In this document: piece by piece, positions 3,930 through 43,740 of the stretch
Layout of the letters: each line of letters begins with the position of its first letter
How positions within the stretch are numbered: position 1 is the first letter of the stretch
Source: a virus
Taxonomy: Duplodnaviria > Caudoviricetes
Length of the DNA stretch: 50,687 nucleotides
Reading direction: 5' to 3' (one strand)
Virus record (IMG/VR): IMGVR_UViG_3300017700_000359
Span: 1 to 50,687 of that record
The notes under the pieces: model-generated
Seen by the model: the letters and a program-made list of their open reading frames with translations, nothing else
Database searches by the model: none
Told to the model about the DNA's origin: nothing
Program-made: the position numbers and the translations under genes

Positions 3930-5870
3930 TTGAGAATTGTAATAGACGTAGAAGCGAATGCTCTTGTGGACCCAACCCGAATATGGGTTGTGGTCTGCAA
4001 GGACATTGATACTAACCAATACCATATCTTTAGAGAGACAGAGAACTTAGATTTACTTAAGGACTTCCTAAGTACTTGTAGTCTTATTATAGGACATAAT
4101 ATACTAGGGTATGACCTACAGGTTCTTAATACTCTATTAAGTATAGACATAGAACAACGTAAGATATTAGATACACTTATAGTATCTAAGTTAGTAGACT
4201 ATCCTAGAGTAGGTCATAGTATAGAAAGTTATGGTATAGAATTCGGAATAGAGAAAGGTAAGTTCTTTGACTTTAGTAAGTATTCCAAATCTATGGAAGA
4301 GTATTGTATACGAGACGTGGATATCTGCCATCGTATTTATAATAAGTATCGTAAATATATCGATAAACCCGAGCATTCTAGCAGCCTTAGGCTTGAGCAT
4401 GAGTTTCAGTGCGTTGTTAATCAGCTGCACAGCAATGGGTTTGCTTTCAATGTTAAGAAAGCGGAAGGCCTCCTTGAAAGAGTTACAGCAGAGCTTGGAG
4501 TTCTAGACGATCAGATACTGTCTGCCTTCCCTCCTAGACTGAAACTTATCAGAGAGATAACCCCGAAGGAAACCAAGTATGGCACAATCAGTCTTACCAG
4601 CATCCCTAAGGGAATGCGGGAACATATTGCTGATCTTACCGTTGGCGCTCCTTTTTCCTATTGCACTTGGTCTGAGTTTAATCCTAGTAGTCATAAGCAG
4701 ATTATTGGGATCCTTAACGAAGCTGGGTGGAAGCCAGTAAACAAGACCAAGACACATCTGGAAACTGAGCGAGAGCTTGCTCGTCTGAAATATACAAAAT
4801 TCAGAGATAGTGAGCTTGACATAAGACTGAAAGAGTTAGATAATAAGCTTAATGATCTGAGGATCTCCGGCTGGAAAGTCGATGAAGAGAACCTCGATAC
4901 CTTGCCAGCGACTGCACCTCCTCCCTCGCGGTTGCTGGCTAAGCGCATCATGCTTGAGTCCAGACGCCGGACACTTACAGAGTGGCTGGAATTAACGGAC
5001 CTTGATGGACGCATCCACGGTAAGTTCTATGGCCTAGGTGCCTGGACTCATCGCATGGCGCACCAAAATCCCAACACTGCTAATATACCCAACGAGTTCG
5101 ATACTGCTGGCAAGAAGAAGTTATATGGCAAAGAACTTAGATCTTTGTGGATGGCACCCAAGAACCGTCTTCTTGTAGGTGTTGACGCCGAAGGAATTCA
5201 GCTGCGTATCTTCGCCCATTACATCGACGACCCTGAGTTTACTGAAGCTCTGGTCCGAGGTAAGAAGGAGGATAAAAGTGATCCTCACAGCCTTAACCAA
5301 AAGATCCTTGGAGACGTTTGCAAAACACGACAGGCGGCTAAGCGGTACATTTATGCCTTGCTTCTCGGCGCAGGTCCTGGAAAACTTGCCGAAATACTCG
5401 GATGTACAGCACATGAAGCTGAAGAGGCTTTCCAACGCCTTATTCGCAGATACGAAGGCTTTGCCCGGCTTAAGGAGACTAGGATACCAGCCGACGCGAG
5501 ACGAGGGTATTTCATTGGACTTGACGGTCGACTGGTTAGGATACCTGGAGACACGGTGGGATCACGACGACACCTCTGCATGTCTGGCTATTTGCAGAAT
5601 GGTGAAGCCGTAGTGATGAAACGTGCTACGTTGAAATGGCACGACAAACTAAAAGACTTGGATGCCAAACTTGTTAACTTTGTTCACGATGAATGGCAAA
5701 CTGAAGCTCCGAATAATCTTGACATCTGCTTGAAGATTGCTAAGATGCAAGCTGACAGTCTTGAAGAGGTTGGTAAGGAGCTCAATCTACTTTGTCCACT
5801 CGCTGGTTCATACTGGAACGATGACGACAAAGATTATACTATAGCCACTAACTGGAGTAAGACACATTGA
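3930..5870 (+). CDS. DNA polymerase family A (T7-like) with 3'-5' exonuclease
   Basis: IDVEA exo I, GHNILGYD exo II, YCIRDV exo III, motif A DAEGIQLR, motif B RQAAKRYIYA, motif C VHDEWQ. Confidence 0.97.
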   Translation: MRIVIDVEANALVDPTRIWVVVCKDIDTNQYHIFRETENLDLLKDFLSTCSLIIGHNILGYDLQVLNTLLSIDIEQRKILDTLIVSKLVDYPRVGHSIESYGIEFGIEKGKFFDFSKYSKSMEEYCIRDVDICHRIYNKYRKYIDKPEHSSSLRLEHEFQCVVNQLHSNGFAFNVKKAEGLLERVTAELGVLDDQILSAFPPRLKLIREITPKETKYGTISLTSIPKGMREHIADLTVGAPFSYCTWSEFNPSSHKQIIGILNEAGWKPVNKTKTHLETERELARLKYTKFRDSELDIRLKELDNKLNDLRISGWKVDEENLDTLPATAPPPSRLLAKRIMLESRRRTLTEWLELTDLDGRIHGKFYGLGAWTHRMAHQNPNTANIPNEFDTAGKKKLYGKELRSLWMAPKNRLLVGVDAEGIQLRIFAHYIDDPEFTEALVRGKKEDKSDPHSLNQKILGDVCKTRQAAKRYIYALLLGAGPGKLAEILGCTAHEAEEAFQRLIRRYEGFARLKETRIPADARRGYFIGLDGRLVRIPGDTVGSRRHLCMSGYLQNGEAVVMKRATLKWHDKLKDLDAKLVNFVHDEWQTEAPNNLDICLKIAKMQADSLEEVGKELNLLCPLAGSYWNDDDKDYTIATNWSKTH

Positions 5871-6034
5871 TTGAAGCTTATAATAGAAGCGGCTTTACCA
5901 AGGAAGACGTTGAAAGTCTTATCTTTTACTTCGAAGACTTTGTTCCGGATGCAGAACGTGTAACTCTAAATCGAAACAAAATAGAGCTATTAATCGACGC
6001 TCTAGAATATTACAAAGAGCAGTTATATACTTAA
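5867..6034 (+). CDS. Hypothetical protein (55 aa)
   Basis: TTG start overlapping the polymerase stop, GGAG upstream; fills the gap (translated by hand). Confidence 0.5.
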   Translation: MIEAYNRSGFTKEDVESLIFYFEDFVPDAERVTLNRNKIELLIDALEYYKEQLYT

Positions 6035-6044
6035 GGAATATCTT

Positions 6045-6236
6045 ATGATTTATGAAGCTGAAGTATCTTACATGATCCCCGAAGGCGGTTTCTACACCGT
6101 GGATGCTACCGACAAGGAGGATGCAGAATTCAAGATTATCGAAATGGTTAGGGAAGACTCTCCTGAGGCTGCGATGATTGTTGTTGATAACGTCAAGGAA
6201 GCAACTCCTCGCCGCGCTAAGGAAGTAATCCGATAA
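6045..6236 (+). CDS. Hypothetical protein
   Basis: AAGGA RBS; ORF track. Confidence 0.7.
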   Translation: MIYEAEVSYMIPEGGFYTVDATDKEDAEFKIIEMVREDSPEAAMIVVDNVKEATPRRAKEVIR

Positions 6237-6451
6237 TGCTACACGACAGTACTTTTGAATATCTCAACCCAAGGGCCACCCAACTCGAAGATATGAACTT
6301 TCTGCGTCAGCAGACAGCCGAGTATGCTAGAGTACTTCAGGAGAATATTCCTGATGGTCCAGATAAAACTTACATCTTAAGAAAGCTTCGTGAGCTTGCG
6401 ATGTGGATTAATGTCGCCATCACACGCGAAGCAGATGGAACTCCTCGATAA
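6236..6451 (+). CDS. Acb2/Tad1-like helical hairpin protein (putative immune-signal sponge)
   Basis: Pattern TFEYLNP...LR...YA...PDGPDK...LRKLRELAMWINVAITR resembles the Acb2/Tad1 hairpin family (from recall). Confidence 0.6.
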   Translation: MLHDSTFEYLNPRATQLEDMNFLRQQTAEYARVLQENIPDGPDKTYILRKLRELAMWINVAITREADGTPR

Positions 6452-6966
6452 TGGCTAATAATATCTTCAAACGAGAAACACACTTCCTTCGTGGAAAGTG
6501 TGCATGGTTTAGACTTCGTCAGGTTAATAAATTTGACAAGTGGTCTGTCGATCTCTACCCGATCAGGGAAGATCTCGATAAGATCAGAGACTGGCAGGCG
6601 GAAGGCGTAAAGAACGTCGTCAAGAAGAATGACGACAATGAGTATTACGTCACCTTCTCACGACCCGTCAAGAAGGAAACCAAAACGGGGAAGGTACTCG
6701 TCTTTCGTCCGCCATACGTCTTGCTTGTCAACGAGCAGGGTGTGAAGGAGCCCTACGAAGGCAATGTCGGAAATGGTTCTGACATTGAACTGGAACTAGA
6801 ACTATATGAACATCCTGTGCCTAACGGTGGCAAGGCCAAGGCAGTGCGTCTGGCTGGAGCTATCGTACACAATCTCGTACCTTTTGATGATCAGAAAGAC
6901 TTCAACAAGGATGAGTATACTGTTGTAAACAAGGCTGTCGATCAGCCAGAACCTCTATGGCATTAA
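6451..6966 (+). CDS. Single-stranded DNA-binding protein (T7 gp2.5-like)
   Basis: VGNGS..ELELY and VRL..AIVHNLV motifs, acidic tail, position downstream of the polymerase. Confidence 0.75.
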   Translation: MANNIFKRETHFLRGKCAWFRLRQVNKFDKWSVDLYPIREDLDKIRDWQAEGVKNVVKKNDDNEYYVTFSRPVKKETKTGKVLVFRPPYVLLVNEQGVKEPYEGNVGNGSDIELELELYEHPVPNGGKAKAVRLAGAIVHNLVPFDDQKDFNKDEYTVVNKAVDQPEPLWH

Positions 6967-7130
6967 ATCAACCTCTTGATATCGAAGTCGAAATTCTCAA
7001 GTCTCGCTTAGACAGCTTGGAGACCAACCAGAAATGGTTGACCTCCAACTGGGTAGGTTGGACATCTTCTACTAAAGACATGGGCCAAAAGATTATGATC
7101 GCCCTTGAGCAAATCGTTAAGGACAAATAA
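6957..7130 (+). CDS. Hypothetical protein (57 aa)
   Basis: Open frame MALNQPLDIEV...VKDK whose stop overlaps the next start (TAATG). Confidence 0.45.
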   Translation: MALNQPLDIEVEILKSRLDSLETNQKWLTSNWVGWTSSTKDMGQKIMIALEQIVKDK

Positions 7131-7405
7131 TGCAACTCTACTTAGTAGAACGTACTGACAAGTGGAGTTACGACGACTACGATAAGTTCGTATGTTGGGC
7201 TAACTCTGCTGAAGAAGCCAAGCGTATTCACGCCGATCCGAATGAATACTATGAATGGAAAGAAGACGGATGGTACTCCAAGTCTCATGGCACTAAAGAA
7301 AAGTACCATGCTTGGGTAGACAATCTAGACAATTTAAAGGTCTATGAGCTCTCACGTCCGCCTGAGAAGCCTACTGTAGTACTCGCATCTTTTAACGCAG
7401 GATAA
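7130..7405 (+). CDS. Hypothetical protein
   Basis: AAGGA RBS; ends VVLASFNAG. Confidence 0.75.
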   Translation: MQLYLVERTDKWSYDDYDKFVCWANSAEEAKRIHADPNEYYEWKEDGWYSKSHGTKEKYHAWVDNLDNLKVYELSRPPEKPTVVLASFNAG

Positions 7406-7408
7406 ATT

Positions 7409-7654
7409 ATGAACCCACTTATTCTAAATTACTCCCAGTGCATCAAGCAAGAAGCACATTGGGGATACGATAAATTCCACAACATCTGCACTGGTACTTG
7501 GAACACCGTCTCTTGGGGTTCCATGGACTGGACAACTACTATTGCTGGTAGTCTGGCATTTGCTGCACTGATGTTAGTCCCTCTTGTGATTGTCGTTGGG
7601 ATGATTGCTGCTGAGCGTGCTCAAGCTAAGATGCTTGAGAAGTTTAACTTCTAA
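7409..7654 (+). CDS. Hypothetical membrane protein
   Basis: AGGA RBS; hydrophobic segment IAGSLAFAALMLVPLVIVVGMIAA. Confidence 0.7.
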   Translation: MNPLILNYSQCIKQEAHWGYDKFHNICTGTWNTVSWGSMDWTTTIAGSLAFAALMLVPLVIVVGMIAAERAQAKMLEKFNF

Positions 7655-9490
7655 TATGAATACAGCTGAAGCATTCACGTGCTAATCTTACGCCAAACCG
7701 ACGAACTGCGTGAACTATCCGGCGAGGCAAGGGCCAGTCTACCAAACAGAGCCAGCTGTTATGACTTAGTTGATATAGTAAAACCTCCCCGGACAGAGGG
7801 ATACGCCACCCTCCCTCTCCCGCCTTCAGGAAGCGGATGTCAACACCAGGGCAAGTCCATATTGTCCGCTCCGATCTGAAAAGAACTGTCGTCAGGTGAC
7901 ACCGTTGTCTTCGTCAAGCTCTCACCAGAGAGTCCTACCAAGAGTGGGTTACACCGGGTGGGCAAACGACAGATGTAGGAAAAGGAGCACCGGTCCCATT
8001 AGCCGGTATAGAAGAGACACGTAAGCAAGGGTGTGGCGCTATGGTGCATAGCGTACAGGTGGTCACCATGCCATCCGTCTGCAGAGGTGGACAGCATCTG
8101 ACCTAGGCATAGGCTTGCTGAAATGTATTCGTATCTTGTCTTAAATGGCTATGGAGCTGAAGCGGTAACGTAGTGTGCGGAAGTAGACAACTCCACCGGA
8201 TAGGATACTGCCACCTCCGTTGTAATCCGGCGAGGGACAAGGAGCAGCTAGTTGAGGTTCGATGCCTCTAGAGCTTGGGTAGCATACGCTGCTGGGTACA
8301 CCTCGTAGTAGATTGATGGAGCACCGAGAGACCGGGCGGTCTGGTGGCGCTGGCGAATAAGCCAACCACGACAGCGTTGTCTCTGGAAAAGTCAAGGAAA
8401 CGCAGCAGGAGTGCAATCCTGTAATGTCAGTTCGAACCTGACCTATGTTTCAGGCCGTAATGCAGTAGGCTTCAGATAAAAGTACGAACGACCGACCCTG
8501 TCTGTATCATGAACGGGAACTCAGAGTCCCTGGGCGGTATACAAAACGGACAAGCTGTTAGCCGGTGCAGTCTCACCGACCGATCTAAGCGAACCTCCCC
8601 TAAGCCACGGACACCCTCCCCTCCACAGGCCACGGGATGCACTGATAGTACTGCAGCAAGCTGTTCGGGATGGTAACAAAGGATCCTTCTCACCGGAGAA
8701 GACCGGGACGATCATCACGAGGTAACCTTCTGAGGGCAGCCCATAACCTGTACTACTGGAGATTGGAAGTACTGCAATCCTTTACTCTACCGTCGTCTGT
8801 AAGTGGAACCTTGCAGCGCCGACCTAGAACAGAACCAGAGAAAGGTTCTTCCCAAATACCCGGTGGTAAAAGCGATGCCAATTGTCTCCCGCCCTGTAGG
8901 AGACAGAGCAGTAGGTAGGATAAGCCTCAAGCACTGGATTGTAGCTAGGTAGTCGTTTACTAGCCTAGCCAAAGACGGTTCCACAGGAACCGGGATTAGA
9001 CGTAACTCTCTGAGGCCAGATGTCTCGGAGGCGCAATCATCTCCTATAGCCGGCATGGGCAGGGTTATGAGACCTGCTAAGGTGTCGTTAGGGTCTAGGA
9101 CTTGAGACGCTGAGGAATAGTCTAGTCAAGCAACAGATGTTCTTGACAAAGCATACCGCTGAACGGGAATTGGCGTGACAACGCTAACACTAGGCATATG
9201 CTGCTTGGAAGTGTAAGACGTCGAGCGTAATGGGTAGATACACACCTGTGGCTCCATGCATCAAGCCAGTCAAGTCCGTCCAACAGATCCCCTGAGTCAG
9301 GGATGATATCAACACGCTGTGCTGTTCTTAGTGGCCCTCGCCAGATAAGCGAAAAGAGCCGCGAACTCAGACTAAGCGCACAGGAGATACGGACATGAGA
9401 ATTTCTTCTCGTGACCAAAAACCGAGGCCCCCTTAATGAATAAGAAGATGAACGGGAGAGGCCGCGTTCGAGCCTCTCCCAAGTTCACAG
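7655..9490 (+). ncRNA. Candidate giant structured non-coding RNA (one or several)
   Basis: No credible ORF over ~1.83 kb; many hairpins and nested long-range helices, T-loops at 8254 and 8426, GNRA-capped stem at 9170; G-U pairs favour the + strand. Confidence 0.7.
9449..9487 (+). promoter_or_regulatory. Long hairpin (processing site or terminator-like) just before the RBS of ORF 9500
   Basis: TGAAC-GGGAGAGGC/GCCTCTCCC-AA-GTTCA. Confidence 0.5.
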
Positions 9491-9499
9491 GAGGACGTC

Positions 9500-9820
9500 A
9501 TGTCTAAGAGCAACTACGGAGAAATCGTCGGACTGCTGGAGTACATGGACAAGGTCCGAAATGAGAAGCCAAAGAAGGGAATGTTCCGTCGCGAGAAGCG
9601 GCGTAGCTCTCCTGATGAGTTCTTCGACGAACTGCGTAAGTTCGAGGATACGAAGGAGAAGTACGAGAAGTGGATGAAGCAGCAGGCCAAGGAAGAGAAG
9701 AAGGAAGAAAAGAAGGGTTGGGACAAGTTGTCTCCCCTGCAGCAGGCAGCGTATCTGACCTTCGGGATGCAGATCATGTCGCTGATGTACTTCTCGTTCC
9801 TCATCAAGTTGCTGAAGTAA
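9500..9820 (+). CDS. Hypothetical charged protein with C-terminal hydrophobic segment
   Basis: AGGAGG RBS; strong codon bias. Confidence 0.8.
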   Translation: MSKSNYGEIVGLLEYMDKVRNEKPKKGMFRREKRRSSPDEFFDELRKFEDTKEKYEKWMKQQAKEEKKEEKKGWDKLSPLQQAAYLTFGMQIMSLMYFSFLIKLLK

Positions 9821-9830
9821 TGAAAGACAA

Positions 9831-10715
9831 ATGAAAGACATACACCAATTAATCCCGGACATCTACCGGATGCTAGAGAAGGACCAATGGTTCACCAATG
9901 ACTTGTCTAAAGAATTTAGCGGAGAAGTTGGATCCCGTCTCGTGGAAAGCTTTAAGCCCCGAGATGAAGTTTCTCGTCTCCGTCTATCTCAGATGGGAGT
10001 CCGCTGCCCGTGCCAATTGTGGCACTCAGTACATACCCCAATGGCTGCGGAGCGACTCCCACCCTGGGTCAGGATCAAGTTTGGATACGGACACATTATC
10101 GAAGCGCTTGTAATAGCGATGGCCAAGGCTGCCGGCCATACAGTAACGGGAGAGCAAGATGAAATTATTCTTGATGGAATTAAAGGTCATCGAGATTGCG
10201 TCATTGACGGCGCTATCGTGGATGTCAAGTCTTGCAGCAGTCGCCAGTTCGAGAAATACAAAACAAAGTCTGTCGATCAGAATGACAGCTTTGGTTATCT
10301 TGACCAACTTGATGGCTATGTTGTTGGCTCCGCTCTGGATCCTCGTGTGGAGGTGAAAGACCGGGGCTACATCCTAGCTGTCGACAAAACCTTAGGACAT
10401 CTGTGTTTATATGAGCATATTGCGCGCGAAGAAAGTATTAGACAACGCATCAGACATTTTAGAGACATCGTCGCTCTTGATCGACCTCCGAAATGCACTT
10501 GCGAAACAACACCCGACGGAGAGTCCGGAAATGTTAGACTGGGCGTTACAGCAAGCTATAATGCGTTTAAGTATCAATGTTTCCCACAGCTTCGAACCTT
10601 CCTCTACGCCGATGGGCCACGGTACTTAACCAAGGTAGTGAAGCGTCCTATGCGTACAGACCGTAGGACGCCAATACCAGAGATTGACAGATACGGGAAC
10701 TTTGTGTATACTTAA
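9831..10715 (+). CDS. PD-(D/E)XK exonuclease (Cas4/RecB-like phage exonuclease)
   Basis: RLSQMG..C.CQLW, GHIIE, GHRD....VDVKS, QLDGY motifs. Confidence 0.85.
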   Translation: MKDIHQLIPDIYRMLEKDQWFTNDLSKEFSGEVGSRLVESFKPRDEVSRLRLSQMGVRCPCQLWHSVHTPMAAERLPPWVRIKFGYGHIIEALVIAMAKAAGHTVTGEQDEIILDGIKGHRDCVIDGAIVDVKSCSSRQFEKYKTKSVDQNDSFGYLDQLDGYVVGSALDPRVEVKDRGYILAVDKTLGHLCLYEHIAREESIRQRIRHFRDIVALDRPPKCTCETTPDGESGNVRLGVTASYNAFKYQCFPQLRTFLYADGPRYLTKVVKRPMRTDRRTPIPEIDRYGNFVYT

Positions 10716-10717
10716 GT

Positions 10718-11047
10718 GTGACCAGGAACTCCCATTTACTTCGTAAATATGGCATTACGGAGAACGACTATGCAGACCTACTACGGAAGCAAGAAGGTCG
10801 TTGCGCAGTTTGTAAAAGAGATGCTGCTGTCTTTCGTAAGCGACTCTGTGTCGATCACGATCACAAGACAGGAGAAGTCAGAGGTCTACTGTGTATCCAT
10901 TGCAACAGATATGTCGTCGGAAGACATCGTCGAACATCTGGCGCGGATTTACTCCGTAGCGCTTTTGAATACCTCACCTCCGAGTATCCGGGATGGATAG
11001 TCCCTCCCAAGCGTAAGAAGAGAAAGAAACGTGTCAGAAGAAGATGA
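10718..11047 (+). CDS. Recombination endonuclease VII-like protein
   Basis: KYGIT...QEGRCAVC...VDHDHKTGEVRGLLCIHCN. Confidence 0.92.
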   Translation: MTRNSHLLRKYGITENDYADLLRKQEGRCAVCKRDAAVFRKRLCVDHDHKTGEVRGLLCIHCNRYVVGRHRRTSGADLLRSAFEYLTSEYPGWIVPPKRKKRKKRVRRR

Positions 11048-11156
11048 ATTTGGACAAGGATATACTCAGGGATATCGCAATGGGTTTTGGACCGGTAGTA
11101 TTGCTGCTTTTCTTGGGACTGTTGTCTTGCTATATCTAGTAGGGACTTTCCTATAA

Positions 11157-11309
11157 GTGAAGCTTGCTGAAGCAGAACATCTGCTTGAAACTTACGAATT
11201 AGAAGAAATACTTAACGAACAAGACTTGACATTAGCAGATGCTCTGTTGTATCTTGTGCAGACAGAGTTCATCGAGAAGCCTAAAGTAACCCCATTAGAG
11301 TTTGAATAA
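11157..11309 (+). CDS. Small acidic hypothetical protein
   Basis: GTG-started frame MKLAEAEHLLETYELEEIL... (translated by hand). Confidence 0.5.
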   Translation: MKLAEAEHLLETYELEEILNEQDLTLADALLYLVQTEFIEKPKVTPLEFE

Positions 11310-39741: not shown

Positions 39742-39980
39742 AAATTTCTGTTCGATATTTATGAGGGGTAATTCAAAGCGCGCTAAGGCCGGGGGCACCC
39801 CCGACATCGAGTTCTGGCATGCAAGATGCCACTGATTTGCAAATTAGAAGCGTTCTAAGACTCTGGCCGTGTCTGACTGGCATACAAGATACTGTATTAC
39901 ATAGAACAGGAATACCCTATGCCAGTACTGTTGAATACCATACGGATTAATACAGTATACCCTATGGTATCCTTACGGTA

Positions 39981-40107
39981 AGACATAAGAGAATAATATT
40001 CTAAGGCTATGACAATTATAGCCGTAGGCATTTATTCTCTATCATCTGTCGTTTAGACATAAGAAAAGAATAACATTCTACAGAATAAACAAATTATAGA
40101 ATAACAT
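39981..40107. repeat. AT-rich short direct repeats in the non-coding interval
   Basis: AGACATAAGA..GAATAAYATTCTA at 39981 and 40055; AGAATAA at 40082 and 40098. Confidence 0.7.
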
Positions 40108-40408
40108 GGCTTTACATAAGGATTGTTGCCCTCTATGATGATTGAAGGTTAAGGGTTAGTTGATAGAGGCAAATACGGAACTGAGTTCCCGGCGCTTTAT
40201 CCCTGTCCTTGGCTAGTTGCTCTTGCCAGCTATGGTTCGGCCATAGCCCCGCCCTGCACTGATGATGGGCGCGGAAAAGGGCAAGGAACTATTCTGTCTG
40301 GTAGGCATTGGTATGTCGTCGCATGTATTTGCGGCCAAGCCATGTCTGGTTTCCAGCGGCGATCTACGGGCCACGCGTAACGTGGCATTCAAAAGAGAGG
40401 CAATGACA

Positions 40409-42982: not shown

Positions 42983-43201
42983 ATGAAACATATTCAGATA
43001 CGGATGAAGACATCGAAGGATGCTCTTCGTGAGTGTGAGAGGCGTGACCAAGACTGGCAGTTATACTTCGAAGGCTATACTCGGCCTCACTTCAAGCTGC
43101 CTGTTGTTGCGAGTCATCTTGACTTCATTGCAGCTGAGCCACTGACTGCAATGGAAGACTTCAGGGCTATTGGTTGGCATGGTAGGAGGAGGGTCCTTTG
43201 A
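42983..43201 (+). CDS. Hypothetical protein
   Basis: GAGGAG RBS before MKHIQI. Confidence 0.6.
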   Translation: MKHIQIRMKTSKDALRECERRDQDWQLYFEGYTRPHFKLPVVASHLDFIAAEPLTAMEDFRAIGWHGRRRVL

Positions 43202-43740
43202 AACGTGCAGCACTGCTGATTGATGGAAGCAATGCCTATGCCAGTGGCATGGCGTTGGGATTCCAGATTGATTACGTCAAGTTCCTATCTTTCTTTCGTA
43301 AGAGGTATGATATCAATCGTGCGTTGTACTTTACTGCTCTTCCTCCGAAGGACATGGTGTCACCACTGCGTCCGATGACTACATTCCTTGAGCACAACGG
43401 CTATACCGTTGTATCCAAGGAGACCAAAGACTACATCAACCATGCAGGTGAGAAGAAGCGTAAGGGTAACATGGACTGTGAGATTGCAGTCTATGCTACC
43501 AAGTATGCCGAAGTGGTTGATGAGATGGTGTTGTTTTCTGGAGACGGAGACTTCCGCTGTGTTGTAGAACGTGTGCAAGAGCTGGGCACACGTGTGACTG
43601 TTCTGTCTACTCTCGTTGGTCACATGGTTGCTGACAGTCTACGTCGGCAGGCTGATGAGTTCATCGAACTCGATAGTATGCGCGCTGACATAGAGCACAT
43701 GAAGAATGGTGCTGTCAAGCGCTATACCCTGAAGGAGTAG
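43198..43740 (+). CDS. NYN-domain (LabA/DUF88, PIN-like) putative ribonuclease
   Basis: LLIDGSN, KGNMDCEIA, LFSGDGDF, LRRQADEFIEL. Confidence 0.93.
   Translation: MKRAALLIDGSNAYASGMALGFQIDYVKFLSFFRKRYDINRALYFTALPPKDMVSPLRPMTTFLEHNGYTVVSKETKDYINHAGEKKRKGNMDCEIAVYATKYAEVVDEMVLFSGDGDFRCVVERVQELGTRVTVLSTLVGHMVADSLRRQADEFIELDSMRADIEHMKNGAVKRYTLKE

Follow-up and report, generated by a model that had tools for sequence, protein, structure and literature searches.

Upstream of an exonuclease gene in the replication module, the window (the whole stretch analyzed, an entire viral record of 50,687 bp with direct terminal repeats) contains a long gap without evident genes, which raises the question of what this DNA encodes. 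The initial annotation had proposed a very large structured RNA here, of a class it did not recognize. Its description of the gap as free of ORFs was borne out: no ORF longer than 98 aa is present in 7655-9499 on either strand, giving a gap of 1.85 kb, and 6967-9484 is the largest uncovered stretch of the genome when ORFs of at least 100 aa are counted. GC content was 0.50-0.53 in the gap and 0.45-0.47 just upstream. Each of the six frames is interrupted by two or more kinds of stop codon, and five of them by all three; an alternative genetic code or a hidden ORF was rejected because of these multi-kind stops in each frame and the absence of codon periodicity. For the neighboring genes, the label "exonuclease" agreed with a PHROG match (Cas4-domain exonuclease, E 1e-23), the protein being at most 42% identical to those of cultured phages, and the label "SSB" for 6451-6966 found no support in Pfam, PHROGs or PDB sequence searches.

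The gap was compared with that of the closest relative, L002. Over 7780-9481 the two are 83% identical, and the gap is conserved at least as well as the genes on either side. Mismatches were distributed over the codon phases as 92/85/104 and 4 of 26 indels were multiples of three, whereas three flanking ORFs showed an excess at third positions (13/7/30, 28/14/63 and 23/15/63). Substitutions in the gap thus lack the codon periodicity of its flanks, in agreement with the earlier remark that the gap shows no coding-like bias; judged by this comparison, the stretch is non-coding yet under purifying selection. The first 113 bases (7655-7767) did not align to L002, and conservation started at 7768-7769. 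The conserved element accordingly begins near 7768-7780 rather than at 7655, where its start had been placed before. The candidate extended -10 box at this point (Table 1) is aligned to TGATAATGT in L002; it was not listed by a consensus promoter scan, and promoter-like sites in 5800-11200 were found at chance number (6 versus 6.1±2.4).

Related uncultured phages with contigs of ~51 kb (L002, L006, L007, L008, L017, L019, L028, L029 and L037) carry homologous non-coding stretches of ~1.1-1.8 kb at the same locus, before the Cas4-like exonuclease gene. In all cases the family occupies the replication module, where a small ORF and the Cas4-like exonuclease gene follow it, and its carriers are soil and freshwater phages. 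Members of a more distant clade are 60-65% alike among themselves over 1.0-1.3 kb, and the conserved blocks of the window are colinear with those of five more distant homologues. Among 80 loci examined out of ~210 IMG/VR relatives, an ORF-free gap of at least 700 nt on the + strand was present in 62 of 77 (three loci without upstream DNA were excluded), a crude count, as chance ORFs split real gaps and a gap need not be the same element; the gaps reach 2.2 kb. By blastn, the gap had no match in 50,697 phage records. Of 24 sequencing runs screened by shared words, one contained 0.99 of the words and may be the source sample, and the other 23 contained 0.06-0.14; such small shares alone do not bear on habitat. 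Contigs from four of these 23 runs (X2, X3, X4 and X8), which do not bear on transcription, contained relatives 80-99% alike with the same order across gap parts and flanks, and one 31-kb contig of X8 covers 8072-9502 and continues into the exonuclease gene.

Table 1. Features of the gap and its margins, in window coordinates. R1 is the covariance model of the core; "both-sided" denotes base pairs that change on both sides.
Feature	Position	Strand	Evidence or remark
Proposed large structured RNA, ~1.70 kb	7780-9481	+	Ends set by conservation alone
Variable spacer	7655-7767	+	After the stop of an 81-aa ORF; outside the conserved element
Candidate extended -10 box TGATATAGT	7771-7779	+	Weak candidate, read from sequence
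5' hairpin GAGG[G]/[C]CCTC, loop with conserved C-rich ACGCCACCCUCC	7796-7817	+	Covariation
Hairpin CCGC/GCGG, conserved loop with UCAGG	7820-7836	+	4 pairs, 3 both-sided, 100% paired
5' strand of long-range core-closing helix, conserved CUUAAAUGGCU..CUGAAGCGG	8140-8165	+	Pairs with 8455-8482
Core module, R1 match	8245-8476	+	114.4 bits, E 6e-42
T-loop-type hairpin A, GAGG-UUCGAUG-CCUC	8254-8268	+	4 pairs, 3 covarying (18 sequences)
Expansion in the clade of window and L002	8330-8395	+	Gap in all other alignment rows
Hairpin GCAGGA/UCCUGU, GNRA-type loop GUGCAA	8405-8422	+	6/6 pairs both-sided, 94% paired (50 sequences)
T-loop-type hairpin B, GUCAG-UUCGAAC-CUGAC	8426-8442	+	5/5 pairs both-sided, 94% paired (50 sequences)
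3' strand of core-closing helix, CGUAAUGCAGUAGG-N5-GAUAAAAG	8455-8482	+	Most conserved primary-sequence block
Expansion in the clade of window and L002	8490-8590	+	Gap in the other five rows; 73-96% identical to L002
Domain closed by 8642-8653/8748-8759, inner helix 8660-8663/8737-8740	8642-8759	+	Window 10/10 and 4/4 pairs
Expansion in the clade of window and L002, nearly invariant between both	8768-8880	+	Absent from the other clade
Two adjacent hairpins, GCTAGG/CCTAGC and CGGTTCC/GGAACCG of the initial annotation	8941-8992	+	4/4 pairs of one helix both-sided
Hairpin domain closed by AGCAUA..GCU/GGC..UAUGCU	9150-9202	+	Window 9/9 pairs
Branched domain, 9205-9209/9279-9283 and 9217-9226/9251-9271	9205-9283	+	15 pairs, 6 both-sided
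Anti-Shine-Dalgarno-like motif CCCCCUUAA	9428-9436	+	Read from sequence; CCUCCUUAA in most relatives
3' hairpin GGGAGAGGC-CGCGUUCGA-GCCUCUCCC	9454-9480	+	11 pairs, 7 both-sided, 100% paired
Shine-Dalgarno GGAGGA and ATG of a 106-aa ORF	9490-9502	+	Sequence

The structural case had been made from complementary arms within the single sequence. All 15 arm pairs listed are present, within a few bases of where they had been placed; as evidence of structure, however, they do not count, because their frequency is that expected by chance: 7655-9490 contains 416, 98 and 18 perfect complements of 6, 7 and 8 nt, and 100 dinucleotide shuffles of it contain 409±28, 102±13 and 25±7. Folding energy was likewise no better than that of shuffles, with MFE z-scores of +0.54 (7655-8650) and -1.12 (8500-9499). 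In L002, two of the 15 pairs are lost (7662/7753 and the 8037 hairpin), the 9170 hairpin is deleted, three lose one base pair through a change, three stay fully paired despite a one-sided change and five are invariant. The remaining one, the 8976 hairpin, carries a compensatory change: CGGUUCC/GGAACCG in the window is CGUCUCC/GGAGGCG in L002, with 7/7 paired after four changes. When the MFE fold of the window was compared with L002, 58 of 133 changed pairs were canonical (slid controls: 48-70 of 137-146), and signal was seen in the class changed on both sides alone (21/40 versus 6-12 of 22-29). The single-sequence MFE structure was not upheld by L002 and was rejected as a guide. What the initial annotation proposed, a very large structured RNA of a non-Rfam class in the replication module, is nevertheless favored by the comparative evidence, while its helix list and folding stability stayed at chance level. 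The case shows that folding statistics of single sequences can overlook RNA genes within large intergenic gaps of phage genomes.

Comparison of the intervals of related phages, proposed earlier as a check, revealed covariation beyond both kinds of control. In a MAFFT alignment of seven sequences, both partners change in 101 of 221 predicted pairs, compared with 54.6±4.8 in shuffles (none of 500 reached the observed value) and 21-38 in slid controls; the shuffle counts should not be read as probabilities, since the sequences share ancestry and the structure was scored on the very alignment from which it was derived. Paired cells amounted to 87.2% (slid: 38-41%), and many helices covary. A structure taken from the five rows of the other clade alone was kept in the window at 161 of 272 pairs (slid controls: 86-110 of 260-268) and in L002 at 178 of 285 (controls: 99-126); pairs changed on both sides yet still paired numbered 35 and 38, respectively. 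The + strand is fixed by an excess of G-U over A-C cells (170 versus 54, ~3:1), and the T-loop and GNRA loops are legible as such on this strand only. The RNAalifold energy was uninformative on strand (-305.6 for + and -310.5 for the reverse complement). Of the generic features of structured non-coding RNAs, compensatory changes above controls and absence of a coding signal were thus found, and stability above shuffles was not.

A decayed coding sequence or a DNA-level element (a replication origin or a packaging site, for example) would fit the location in the replication module, and the RNA reading draws on sequence comparison. Against this stand the compensatory changes with their 3:1 bias on one strand, conservation at least equal to that of the flanking genes without codon periodicity, a GC content above, not below, that of the neighbors, and the lack of direct repeats or iterons in the gap (self-comparison gave no match below E 1.5). 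We regard such a non-RNA origin as hardly credible, and a real, conserved structured RNA element as very likely from the aligned homologues.

The view that the class is not a recognized one held up against Rfam. Rfam 15 gave no match at gathering score over the whole window and nothing relevant in 7300-9800 at E up to 10 (GOLLD, ROOL, OLE and raiA were not matched), nor was anything relevant found in the loci of 10 relatives at E up to 1 or 0.1. Neither tRNA nor tmRNA was detected in the window or in these 10 loci (ARAGORN; Rfam), and no group I intron, RNase P RNA or rRNA model matched the window. An ORF-less group I or II intron, or another self-splicing or mobile ribozyme in the replication module, would be compatible in size, and cmscan placed a plastid group II domain-5 model weakly at 9393-9412 (21.6 bits versus a gathering score of 61; E 0.099). 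This match, however, is on the minus strand, covers 20 of 49 model positions and corresponds to the hairpin CAUGAGAA/UUCUCGUG; no other group I or II model matched even at E 10. Moreover, no gene is split, the flanking ORFs having their own stop, Shine-Dalgarno and ATG, no maturase or homing endonuclease lies within the gap, and in two cultured distant relatives without the gap the genes beside it are also separate. The intron reading is close to refuted already, and its probability is minimal. A search of the literature on large, ornate or structured intergenic phage RNAs found no description of such an RNA, and in bioRxiv 10.64898/2026.10.21.760802 the words "phage", "GOLLD" and "ROOL" do not occur. 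From these comparisons, 7780-9481 (+) probably encodes one member of an RNA family not described before, whose members are very large, structured and multi-domain. The RNA would be transcribed together with the early/replication genes and would remain untranslated, forming a compactly folded body that may act as a scaffold, sensor or ribozyme.

Within this proposed RNA, the core (8140-8482), as read from the aligned sequences, is closed by a long-range helix and contains one GNRA-type hairpin and two T-loop hairpins of the tRNA type. In the window 13/13 and 4/4 pairs of the closing helix form, and in the seven-sequence alignment its 14 pairs include 6 with both-sided changes (96% paired). The exact pattern of 8455-8482 was found in seven stretches of IMG/VR, all of this phage group, and in none of 185,579 species genomes. 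R1, a covariance model of 162 positions built from 18 sequences with the window among them, had a single match in the whole window. At 20 bits or more it matched the window and 41 of the 80 relatives' loci, 24 of the 41 not having been used in building, and all these matches preceded the exonuclease gene and lay on the + strand. On the two cultured relatives without the gap R1 scored at most 8.4 bits; because control loci reach this value, matches below ~15 bits were not counted. Among 50 distinct R1-matched sequences, 94% of cells were paired (slid: 31-49%) and 235 cells changed on both sides (shuffles: 62±8). Hairpin A was 94% paired in this set. Hairpin B reads GUCGG..CCGAU in L002, with a G-U pair possible on the + strand only, and among family members the 8405-8422 loop reads GUGAAA, GUGCAA or UUGCAA. 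Tertiary contacts of the T-loops and the GNRA loop may hold the body together, as in other large ornate RNAs.

Outside the core, covariation was found in several further domains. The 7796-7817 hairpin retains its loop motif CC(A/C)(A/C)CCUCC, with arms that vary among all seven sequences (4 pairs, 2 with both-sided changes, 91% of cells paired). The helices of 8642-8759 comprise 14 pairs with 6 both-sided changes in the same alignment, and the closing helix of 9150-9202 comprises 9, of which 5 change on both sides (98% paired). The expansions of the window clade (~600 nt) rest on two sequences, and any structure in them is tentative: across 8490-9110, 8 both-sided changes separate the window from L002, 6 of them canonical, and 8768-8867 is 97% identical between the two, versus 80-88% in flanking genes. 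An internal duplication, suggested by CCUCCCC..CCCUCC motifs at 7786 and 8594, was rejected (self-BLAST best E 1.5).

Pairing between the distant parts is sparse. The sole predicted pairing that joins both ends has 3 bp, and long-range helices that span ~800 nt form weakly in the window (6/9, 3/4 and 6/8 pairs), which makes a single unit tentative. A string of smaller RNAs and cis elements (a 5' hairpin, a ~340-nt core RNA, hairpin domains and a 3' translational operator), co-transcribed and then cut apart or acting independently, would account for the finding that well-supported helices are local or close domains of ~50-340 nt, with no strongly supported helix joining the 5' and 3' parts. Hairpin A and its neighbor are deleted in L008 and L019, the large expansions are confined to the window clade, and the phage encodes an NYN-domain protein, a predicted RNase. 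Among 47 core-bearing sources the 3' motif was found in 28 and the 5' motif in 16, but these counts use strict patterns that would miss diverged members. Also at odds with a string of elements, the order of conserved blocks is identical in all seven full-length homologues, and no internal promoter or terminator stands out in a scan of the gap. This arrangement is possible, though we would not bet on it; a single RNA unit seems to us slightly better than an even guess.

At its 3' end, according to the alignment, the element finishes with a conserved anti-Shine-Dalgarno motif and a covarying clamp hairpin, followed by the ribosome-binding site of the next gene. Exact CCTCCTTAA was present in 24 of the 80 relatives' loci, against a chance expectation of ~1.5 matches by our own arithmetic, and was soon followed by a hairpin and, mostly, a start codon. 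The 9454-9480 hairpin scores as terminator-like on the minus strand. Applied to the other-clade alignment, RNAalifold predicts that CCUCCUU base-pairs with the AAGGAG site on the far side of the hairpin; in the window, CCCCCUU forms 5 of 6 pairs with AGGAGG, and CCCCCUUAA leaves a C-A mismatch against GGAGG. Both motifs are nearly invariant, and the U-to-C variant is uncompensated in the Shine-Dalgarno site. Given this mismatch, and as the Shine-Dalgarno site cannot covary, occlusion of the site is argued from complementarity alone, and we give it an even chance. If it occurs, the 3' module would pair with the downstream Shine-Dalgarno and thereby gate translation of the following cistron(s).

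The same module suggests a giant cis-acting leader, a T-box- or riboswitch-like sensor with expression of the downstream small ORF and exonuclease operon as its sole output. The anti-Shine-Dalgarno motif, clamp hairpin and Shine-Dalgarno stand directly before the next start codon and are the most widely kept primary-sequence feature, and the element keeps a constant placement with respect to the genes that follow. Like Shine-Dalgarno-sequestering leaders, the element has a CCUCC-type motif ~55 nt upstream of the Shine-Dalgarno with a stable hairpin between; it also has T-loops, the motifs by which T-box leaders dock tRNA. At 1.1-1.8 kb, however, it is several-fold larger than any bacterial leader we know of. 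Furthermore, no aptamer, riboswitch, T-box or leader family of Rfam matches it, the gene just 3' differs among relatives that keep the 3' motif, and no alternative on/off pairing was noticed. A leader of this kind is in our view unlikely.

Returning to the large RNA of our preferred reading, its 3' motif also recalls 16S rRNA, whose 3' end carries the anti-Shine-Dalgarno CCUCCUUA. The best-kept motif of the family, CCUCCUUAA, has the same letters and is located close to the 3' end of a proposed RNA that approximates 16S rRNA in size. In contrast to 16S rRNA, the motif precedes a terminal hairpin, the window copy has C for the middle U, and no small-subunit rRNA model matched at E up to 10. One might speculate on a stand-alone RNA particle built on the T-loop/GNRA core that displays 16S-like anti-Shine-Dalgarno sequences (5' loop CCACCCUCC and 3' CCUCCUUAA) and captures ribosome-binding sites in trans, or forms a higher-order RNA or RNP complex during infection. 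We consider this improbable; if true, no larger class of structured RNA, ribosomal RNAs and introns aside, would yet have been seen in phages or bacteria, and the element would be a phage device acting on host translation beyond a mere leader.

To our knowledge, only a handful of bacterial or phage RNAs above 500 nt have conserved intricate structure (GOLLD, ROOL, OLE and raiA), each structurally unprecedented. GOLLD and ROOL measure ~0.6-0.8 kb; the present element, at ~1.1-1.8 kb, is roughly twice that size, and such a family would enlarge the class. It is widespread in an abundant uncultured phage group of soil and freshwater, is modular in architecture with an evident physical coupling to translation of the gene that follows, and is tractable, as in vitro transcription for SHAPE and cryo-EM is possible without knowing the host. 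GOLLD and ROOL are giant ornate RNAs of phages, prophages and bacteria that form RNA-only multimeric cages and whose function is unknown (Kretsch et al. Nature 2025, PMC12286853). The element resembles them in being phage-borne, non-coding and multi-domain, with near-invariant blocks between variable covarying hairpins. It differs in having no Rfam match and no adjoining tRNA genes and in ending in an anti-Shine-Dalgarno module coupled to the next gene. OLE, the ornate large extremophilic RNA of ~600 nt, is part of a membrane-bound RNP (PMC9723947, PMC10898510). The product of the gene downstream of the element is small and rich in Lys and Glu and has a hydrophobic helix at its C terminus, which recalls the membrane protein partners of that likewise large, ornate RNA; a partnership of RNA and protein here is pure conjecture by analogy, and in contrast to OLE the element has no Rfam match, another host range and context, and a downstream gene that varies. 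Single hairpins of the element may be among the 10,006 viral candidate RNAs of 29-151 nt reported from IMG/VR (PMC10690425).

The record is a complete viral one, 50,687 bp long, and has direct terminal repeats. On the plus strand of its left arm lie genes for a uracil-DNA glycosylase, an AAA ATPase, a DUF7192 protein and a family-A DNA polymerase, and a row of small ORFs; past a gap come a 106-aa ORF, a Cas4-domain exonuclease (PHROG, E 1e-23) and an endonuclease VII, also on the plus strand. The gap runs from the stop codon of an 81-aa ORF at 7654 to an ATG at 9500. No ORF longer than 98 aa was found between these limits on either strand, at least two of the three stop codons occur in each of the six frames, and at a threshold of 100-aa ORFs this is the largest uncovered stretch genome-wide; the coding gap described in the initial annotation is therefore real, with a length of 1.85 kb. 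For the ORF at 6451–6966, searches of Pfam, PHROGs and PDB sequences gave no match and so no support for its earlier label, SSB. This 171-aa plus-strand ORF is conserved in the close relative L002 (80% DNA identity), and its place is taken by a 162–164-aa ORF in relatives. Elsewhere, 471 nt at 39742–40212 lack any ORF of at least 60 aa where minus-strand structural genes switch to plus-strand genes; this is probably a divergent promoter region.

Homologous loci were recovered by searches with the flanking genes and with two conserved DNA patterns, and related contigs of ~51.4 kb carry the same locus. The exonuclease of L002 is 90% identical to that of the window, and those of a more distant clade (L006, L007, L008, L017, and L019) are 62–63% identical. 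In every one of these loci the corresponding stretch is poor in ORFs. Within the distant clade this stretch is 60–65% alike over 1.0–1.3 kb, and colinear conserved blocks are common to the window and that clade. Between 5′ motif and 3′ hairpin the estimated length is ~1.1–1.4 kb in the distant clade and ~1.7–1.76 kb in the window and L002. Four more metagenome runs, three from soil and one from freshwater, contain contigs of relatives that are 80–99% alike and keep the gene order surrounding the element.

Positions 7768–9499 are non-coding yet kept by selection. Their identity to L002 is 83%, with mismatches shared about equally among the three codon phases (92/85/104), and only 4 of the 26 indels are multiples of three; three flanking ORFs compared with L002 show a third-position excess and almost no indels. 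Conservation is patchy, as is typical of structured RNAs: identity per 100-nt window ranges from 64–67% in some to 96–97% in others, the latter exceeding the flanking genes. As the first 113 nt past the upstream stop show no conservation with L002, the element starts near 7768–7780 and not at 7655, where it had been placed.

All 15 pairs of complementary arms listed in the initial annotation are present; they are nevertheless uninformative, as complementary 6-, 7-, and 8-mers in the gap (416, 98, and 18) stand at the level of dinucleotide shuffles (409 ± 28, 102 ± 13, and 25 ± 7). The same annotation took folding energy no better than shuffles as speaking against its claim; the MFE z-scores were +0.54 and −1.12, so that by its own measure the claim would fail. 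Nor is the window’s own MFE fold upheld by L002, in which 58 of 133 changed pairs are still canonical, compared to 48–70 of 137–146 in the slid control (pairing partner shifted along the alignment). The case for a structured RNA, a prediction from sequence, rests entirely on comparative data.

The cleaner evidence is a cross-clade test, in which RNAalifold was run on the five distant-clade rows only and the resulting 333 pairs were then scored in the window and L002. Canonical pairing holds in the window for 161 of 272 scorable pairs, compared to 86–110 of 260–268 when slid by 1–3 columns; for L002 the values are 178 of 285 and 99–126. Both sides differ from the other clade’s commonest pair, yet still pair, in 35 pairs of the window and 38 of L002. 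When the alignment of all seven rows is scored on the RNAalifold structure predicted from it, with 221 pairs in 42 helices, it has 87.2% of cells paired (slid 38–41%), 101 pairs changed on both sides (shuffles 54.6 ± 4.8, 0 of 500 as high; slid 21–38) and a covariation score of 0.399 against 0.08–0.10, counts that are not probabilities, since the structure derives from the alignment on which it is scored and the sequences are related. Covariation among homologues, above slid and shuffled controls, thus supports the structured RNA first proposed. On the plus strand the seven-row structure has 170 G-U cells vs. 54 A-C cells, hairpin loops of T-loop type (UUCGANY) and of GNRA type (GUGAAA/GUGCAA) are readable on that strand only, and the genes flanking the RNA lie on it too.

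Predicted anatomy of the element in window coordinates
Feature	Position	Strand	Remarks
5′ hairpin	7796–7817	+	conserved C-rich loop CC[A/C][A/C]CCUCC
Second hairpin	7820–7836	+	UCAGG loop
Core domain	8140–8482	+	closed by long-range helix 8140–8165 / 8455–8482; 17/17 pairs formed in window, 6/14 covary
T-loop hairpin A	8254–8268	+	inside core domain
GNRA-type hairpin	8405–8422	+	inside core domain
T-loop hairpin B	8426–8442	+	inside core domain
Best-kept block of the family, CGUAAUGCAGUAGG-N5-GAUAAAAG	8456–8482	+	3′ strand of core-closing helix
Domain	8642–8759	+	10-bp closing helix
Two hairpins	8941–8992	+	
Further domain	9150–9202	+	
Further domain	9205–9283	+	
3′ module, motif CCCCCUUAA	9428–9436	+	
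3′ module, 9–11-bp hairpin	9454–9480	+	7/11 pairs covary, 100% paired
GGAGGA	9490–9495	+	then ATG at 9500
Expansions in window and L002	~8330–8395, 8490–8590, 8768–8880, parts of 8990–9100		missing from other clade

Both hairpins at 8941–8992 are among those listed in the initial annotation, and the second shows a textbook compensatory change in L002. The expansions are highly conserved between the window and L002; for their structure these two sequences offer little, with eight changes on both sides over 8490–9110, six of them canonical. An additional 5′ hairpin, missing from the window, is present in three homologues (3115–3135 in L006, aligned places in L017 and L019). Its loop reads UAAGGAG in L006 and L019, complementary to the 3′ CCUCCUUAA motif, and UAAGAAG in L017, with one mismatch; in this subclade, loop and motif may form a long-range contact.

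An alignment of six exonucleases gave 210 relatives in IMG/VR, and 80 loci around the exonuclease gene were fetched. With a sequence profile of the seven RNAs, 17 of the 80 loci were matched at first, and five iterations raised the number to 31. R1, a covariance model of the core only, was built from 18 sequences and spans 162 positions with three hairpins. The window scores 20 bits or more with R1, as do 41 of the 80 loci; 24 of these 41 were outside the model-building set, and every such match lies on the plus strand upstream of the exonuclease gene. Among 50 distinct R1-matched sequences, in an alignment fitted to and leaning towards the model, 94% of cells are paired (slid 31–49%), and 235 cells are changed on both sides vs. 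62 ± 8 in shuffles. In a Zobellviridae phage and in Roseobacter phage CRP-13, both cultured and distantly related, R1 scores do not exceed 8.4 bits, and polymerase, small ORFs and exonuclease are tightly packed with no gap. The element therefore characterizes an uncultured clade of soil and freshwater phages. By a crude measure, a plus-strand ORF-free stretch of at least 700 nt, up to 2.2 kb, lies upstream of the exonuclease in 62 of 77 loci. The larger stretches (2.1–2.2 kb) include L080 (1533–3772), with no core match at E up to 0.01, and L043 (2252–4363), with a strong one (88 bits).

Of the 80 loci, 24 contain the nonamer CCTCCTTAA exactly and ~10 more contain near variants; by our arithmetic ~1.5 exact matches are expected by chance. 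A stable but variable hairpin comes after the motif and, in most of these loci, an AGGAG-type ribosome-binding site and start codon come next. The motif has the letters of the 16S rRNA 3′ end. In the RNAalifold prediction it base-pairs, across the hairpin, to the Shine-Dalgarno site downstream. The simplest reading, from complementarity only, is that the RNA end would occlude the ribosome-binding site of the next cistron. Motif and Shine-Dalgarno site are both near-invariant, and the window’s U-to-C variant is without compensation. The protein encoded by the downstream 106-aa ORF (9500–9820, plus strand) is rich in Lys and Glu in its N-terminal part, has a hydrophobic helix at the C terminus and belongs to no Pfam family. 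Versions of 95–109 aa follow the RNA in L002, L005, L006, L007, L017, and L019; other relatives have different genes just downstream. On the minus strand at 9453–9481, the RNA’s 3′ hairpin precedes a run rich in T; this arrangement has the score of an intrinsic terminator and might stop antisense transcription into the RNA gene.

In line with the earlier remark that the class was not recognized, cmscan with all 4,227 Rfam 15 models gave no match reaching gathering score anywhere in the window. With the limit relaxed to E 10, 7300–9800 gave two matches only, both chance-level, one of them to a plastid group II domain-5 model (20 nt, minus strand, 21.6 bits, gathering score 61). There was no Rfam match in the homologous stretch of ten relatives’ loci, no tRNA or tmRNA by ARAGORN in the window or six relatives’ loci, and no blastn match of the gap in 50,697 deposited phage genomes. 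An intron, a decayed gene or a DNA element is close to excluded by the complete flanking ORFs, Rfam, self-comparison, the lack of codon periodicity and the G-U excess. We are confident that the element is a conserved, structured RNA whose family lies outside Rfam, and to that extent the initial reading stands. A single molecule of all 1.7 kb is only slightly favored: supported helices close domains of 50–340 nt, modules are gained and lost among relatives, and no strong helix in the predicted structure joins the two ends. Neither full-text literature searches nor an IMG/VR-wide survey of viral structured RNAs (PMC10690425), with candidates of 29–151 nt, gave a description of the element; single hairpins could be among the survey’s supplementary candidate lists.

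Most likely, the mechanism has two parts: an untranslated, compactly folded RNA body would be made with the replication-module transcript, and the 3′ module would then gate downstream translation. The body could be a scaffold or particle like ROOL and GOLLD, a sensor, or a ribozyme. Giant ornate phage RNAs of unknown function are a kind already known; the family is new, about twice the size of GOLLD and putatively coupled to a translational operator. The same phage encodes a 180-aa NYN-domain protein (PF01936, E 7e-28; 43198–43740, plus strand), a predicted ribonuclease that could process the large RNA.
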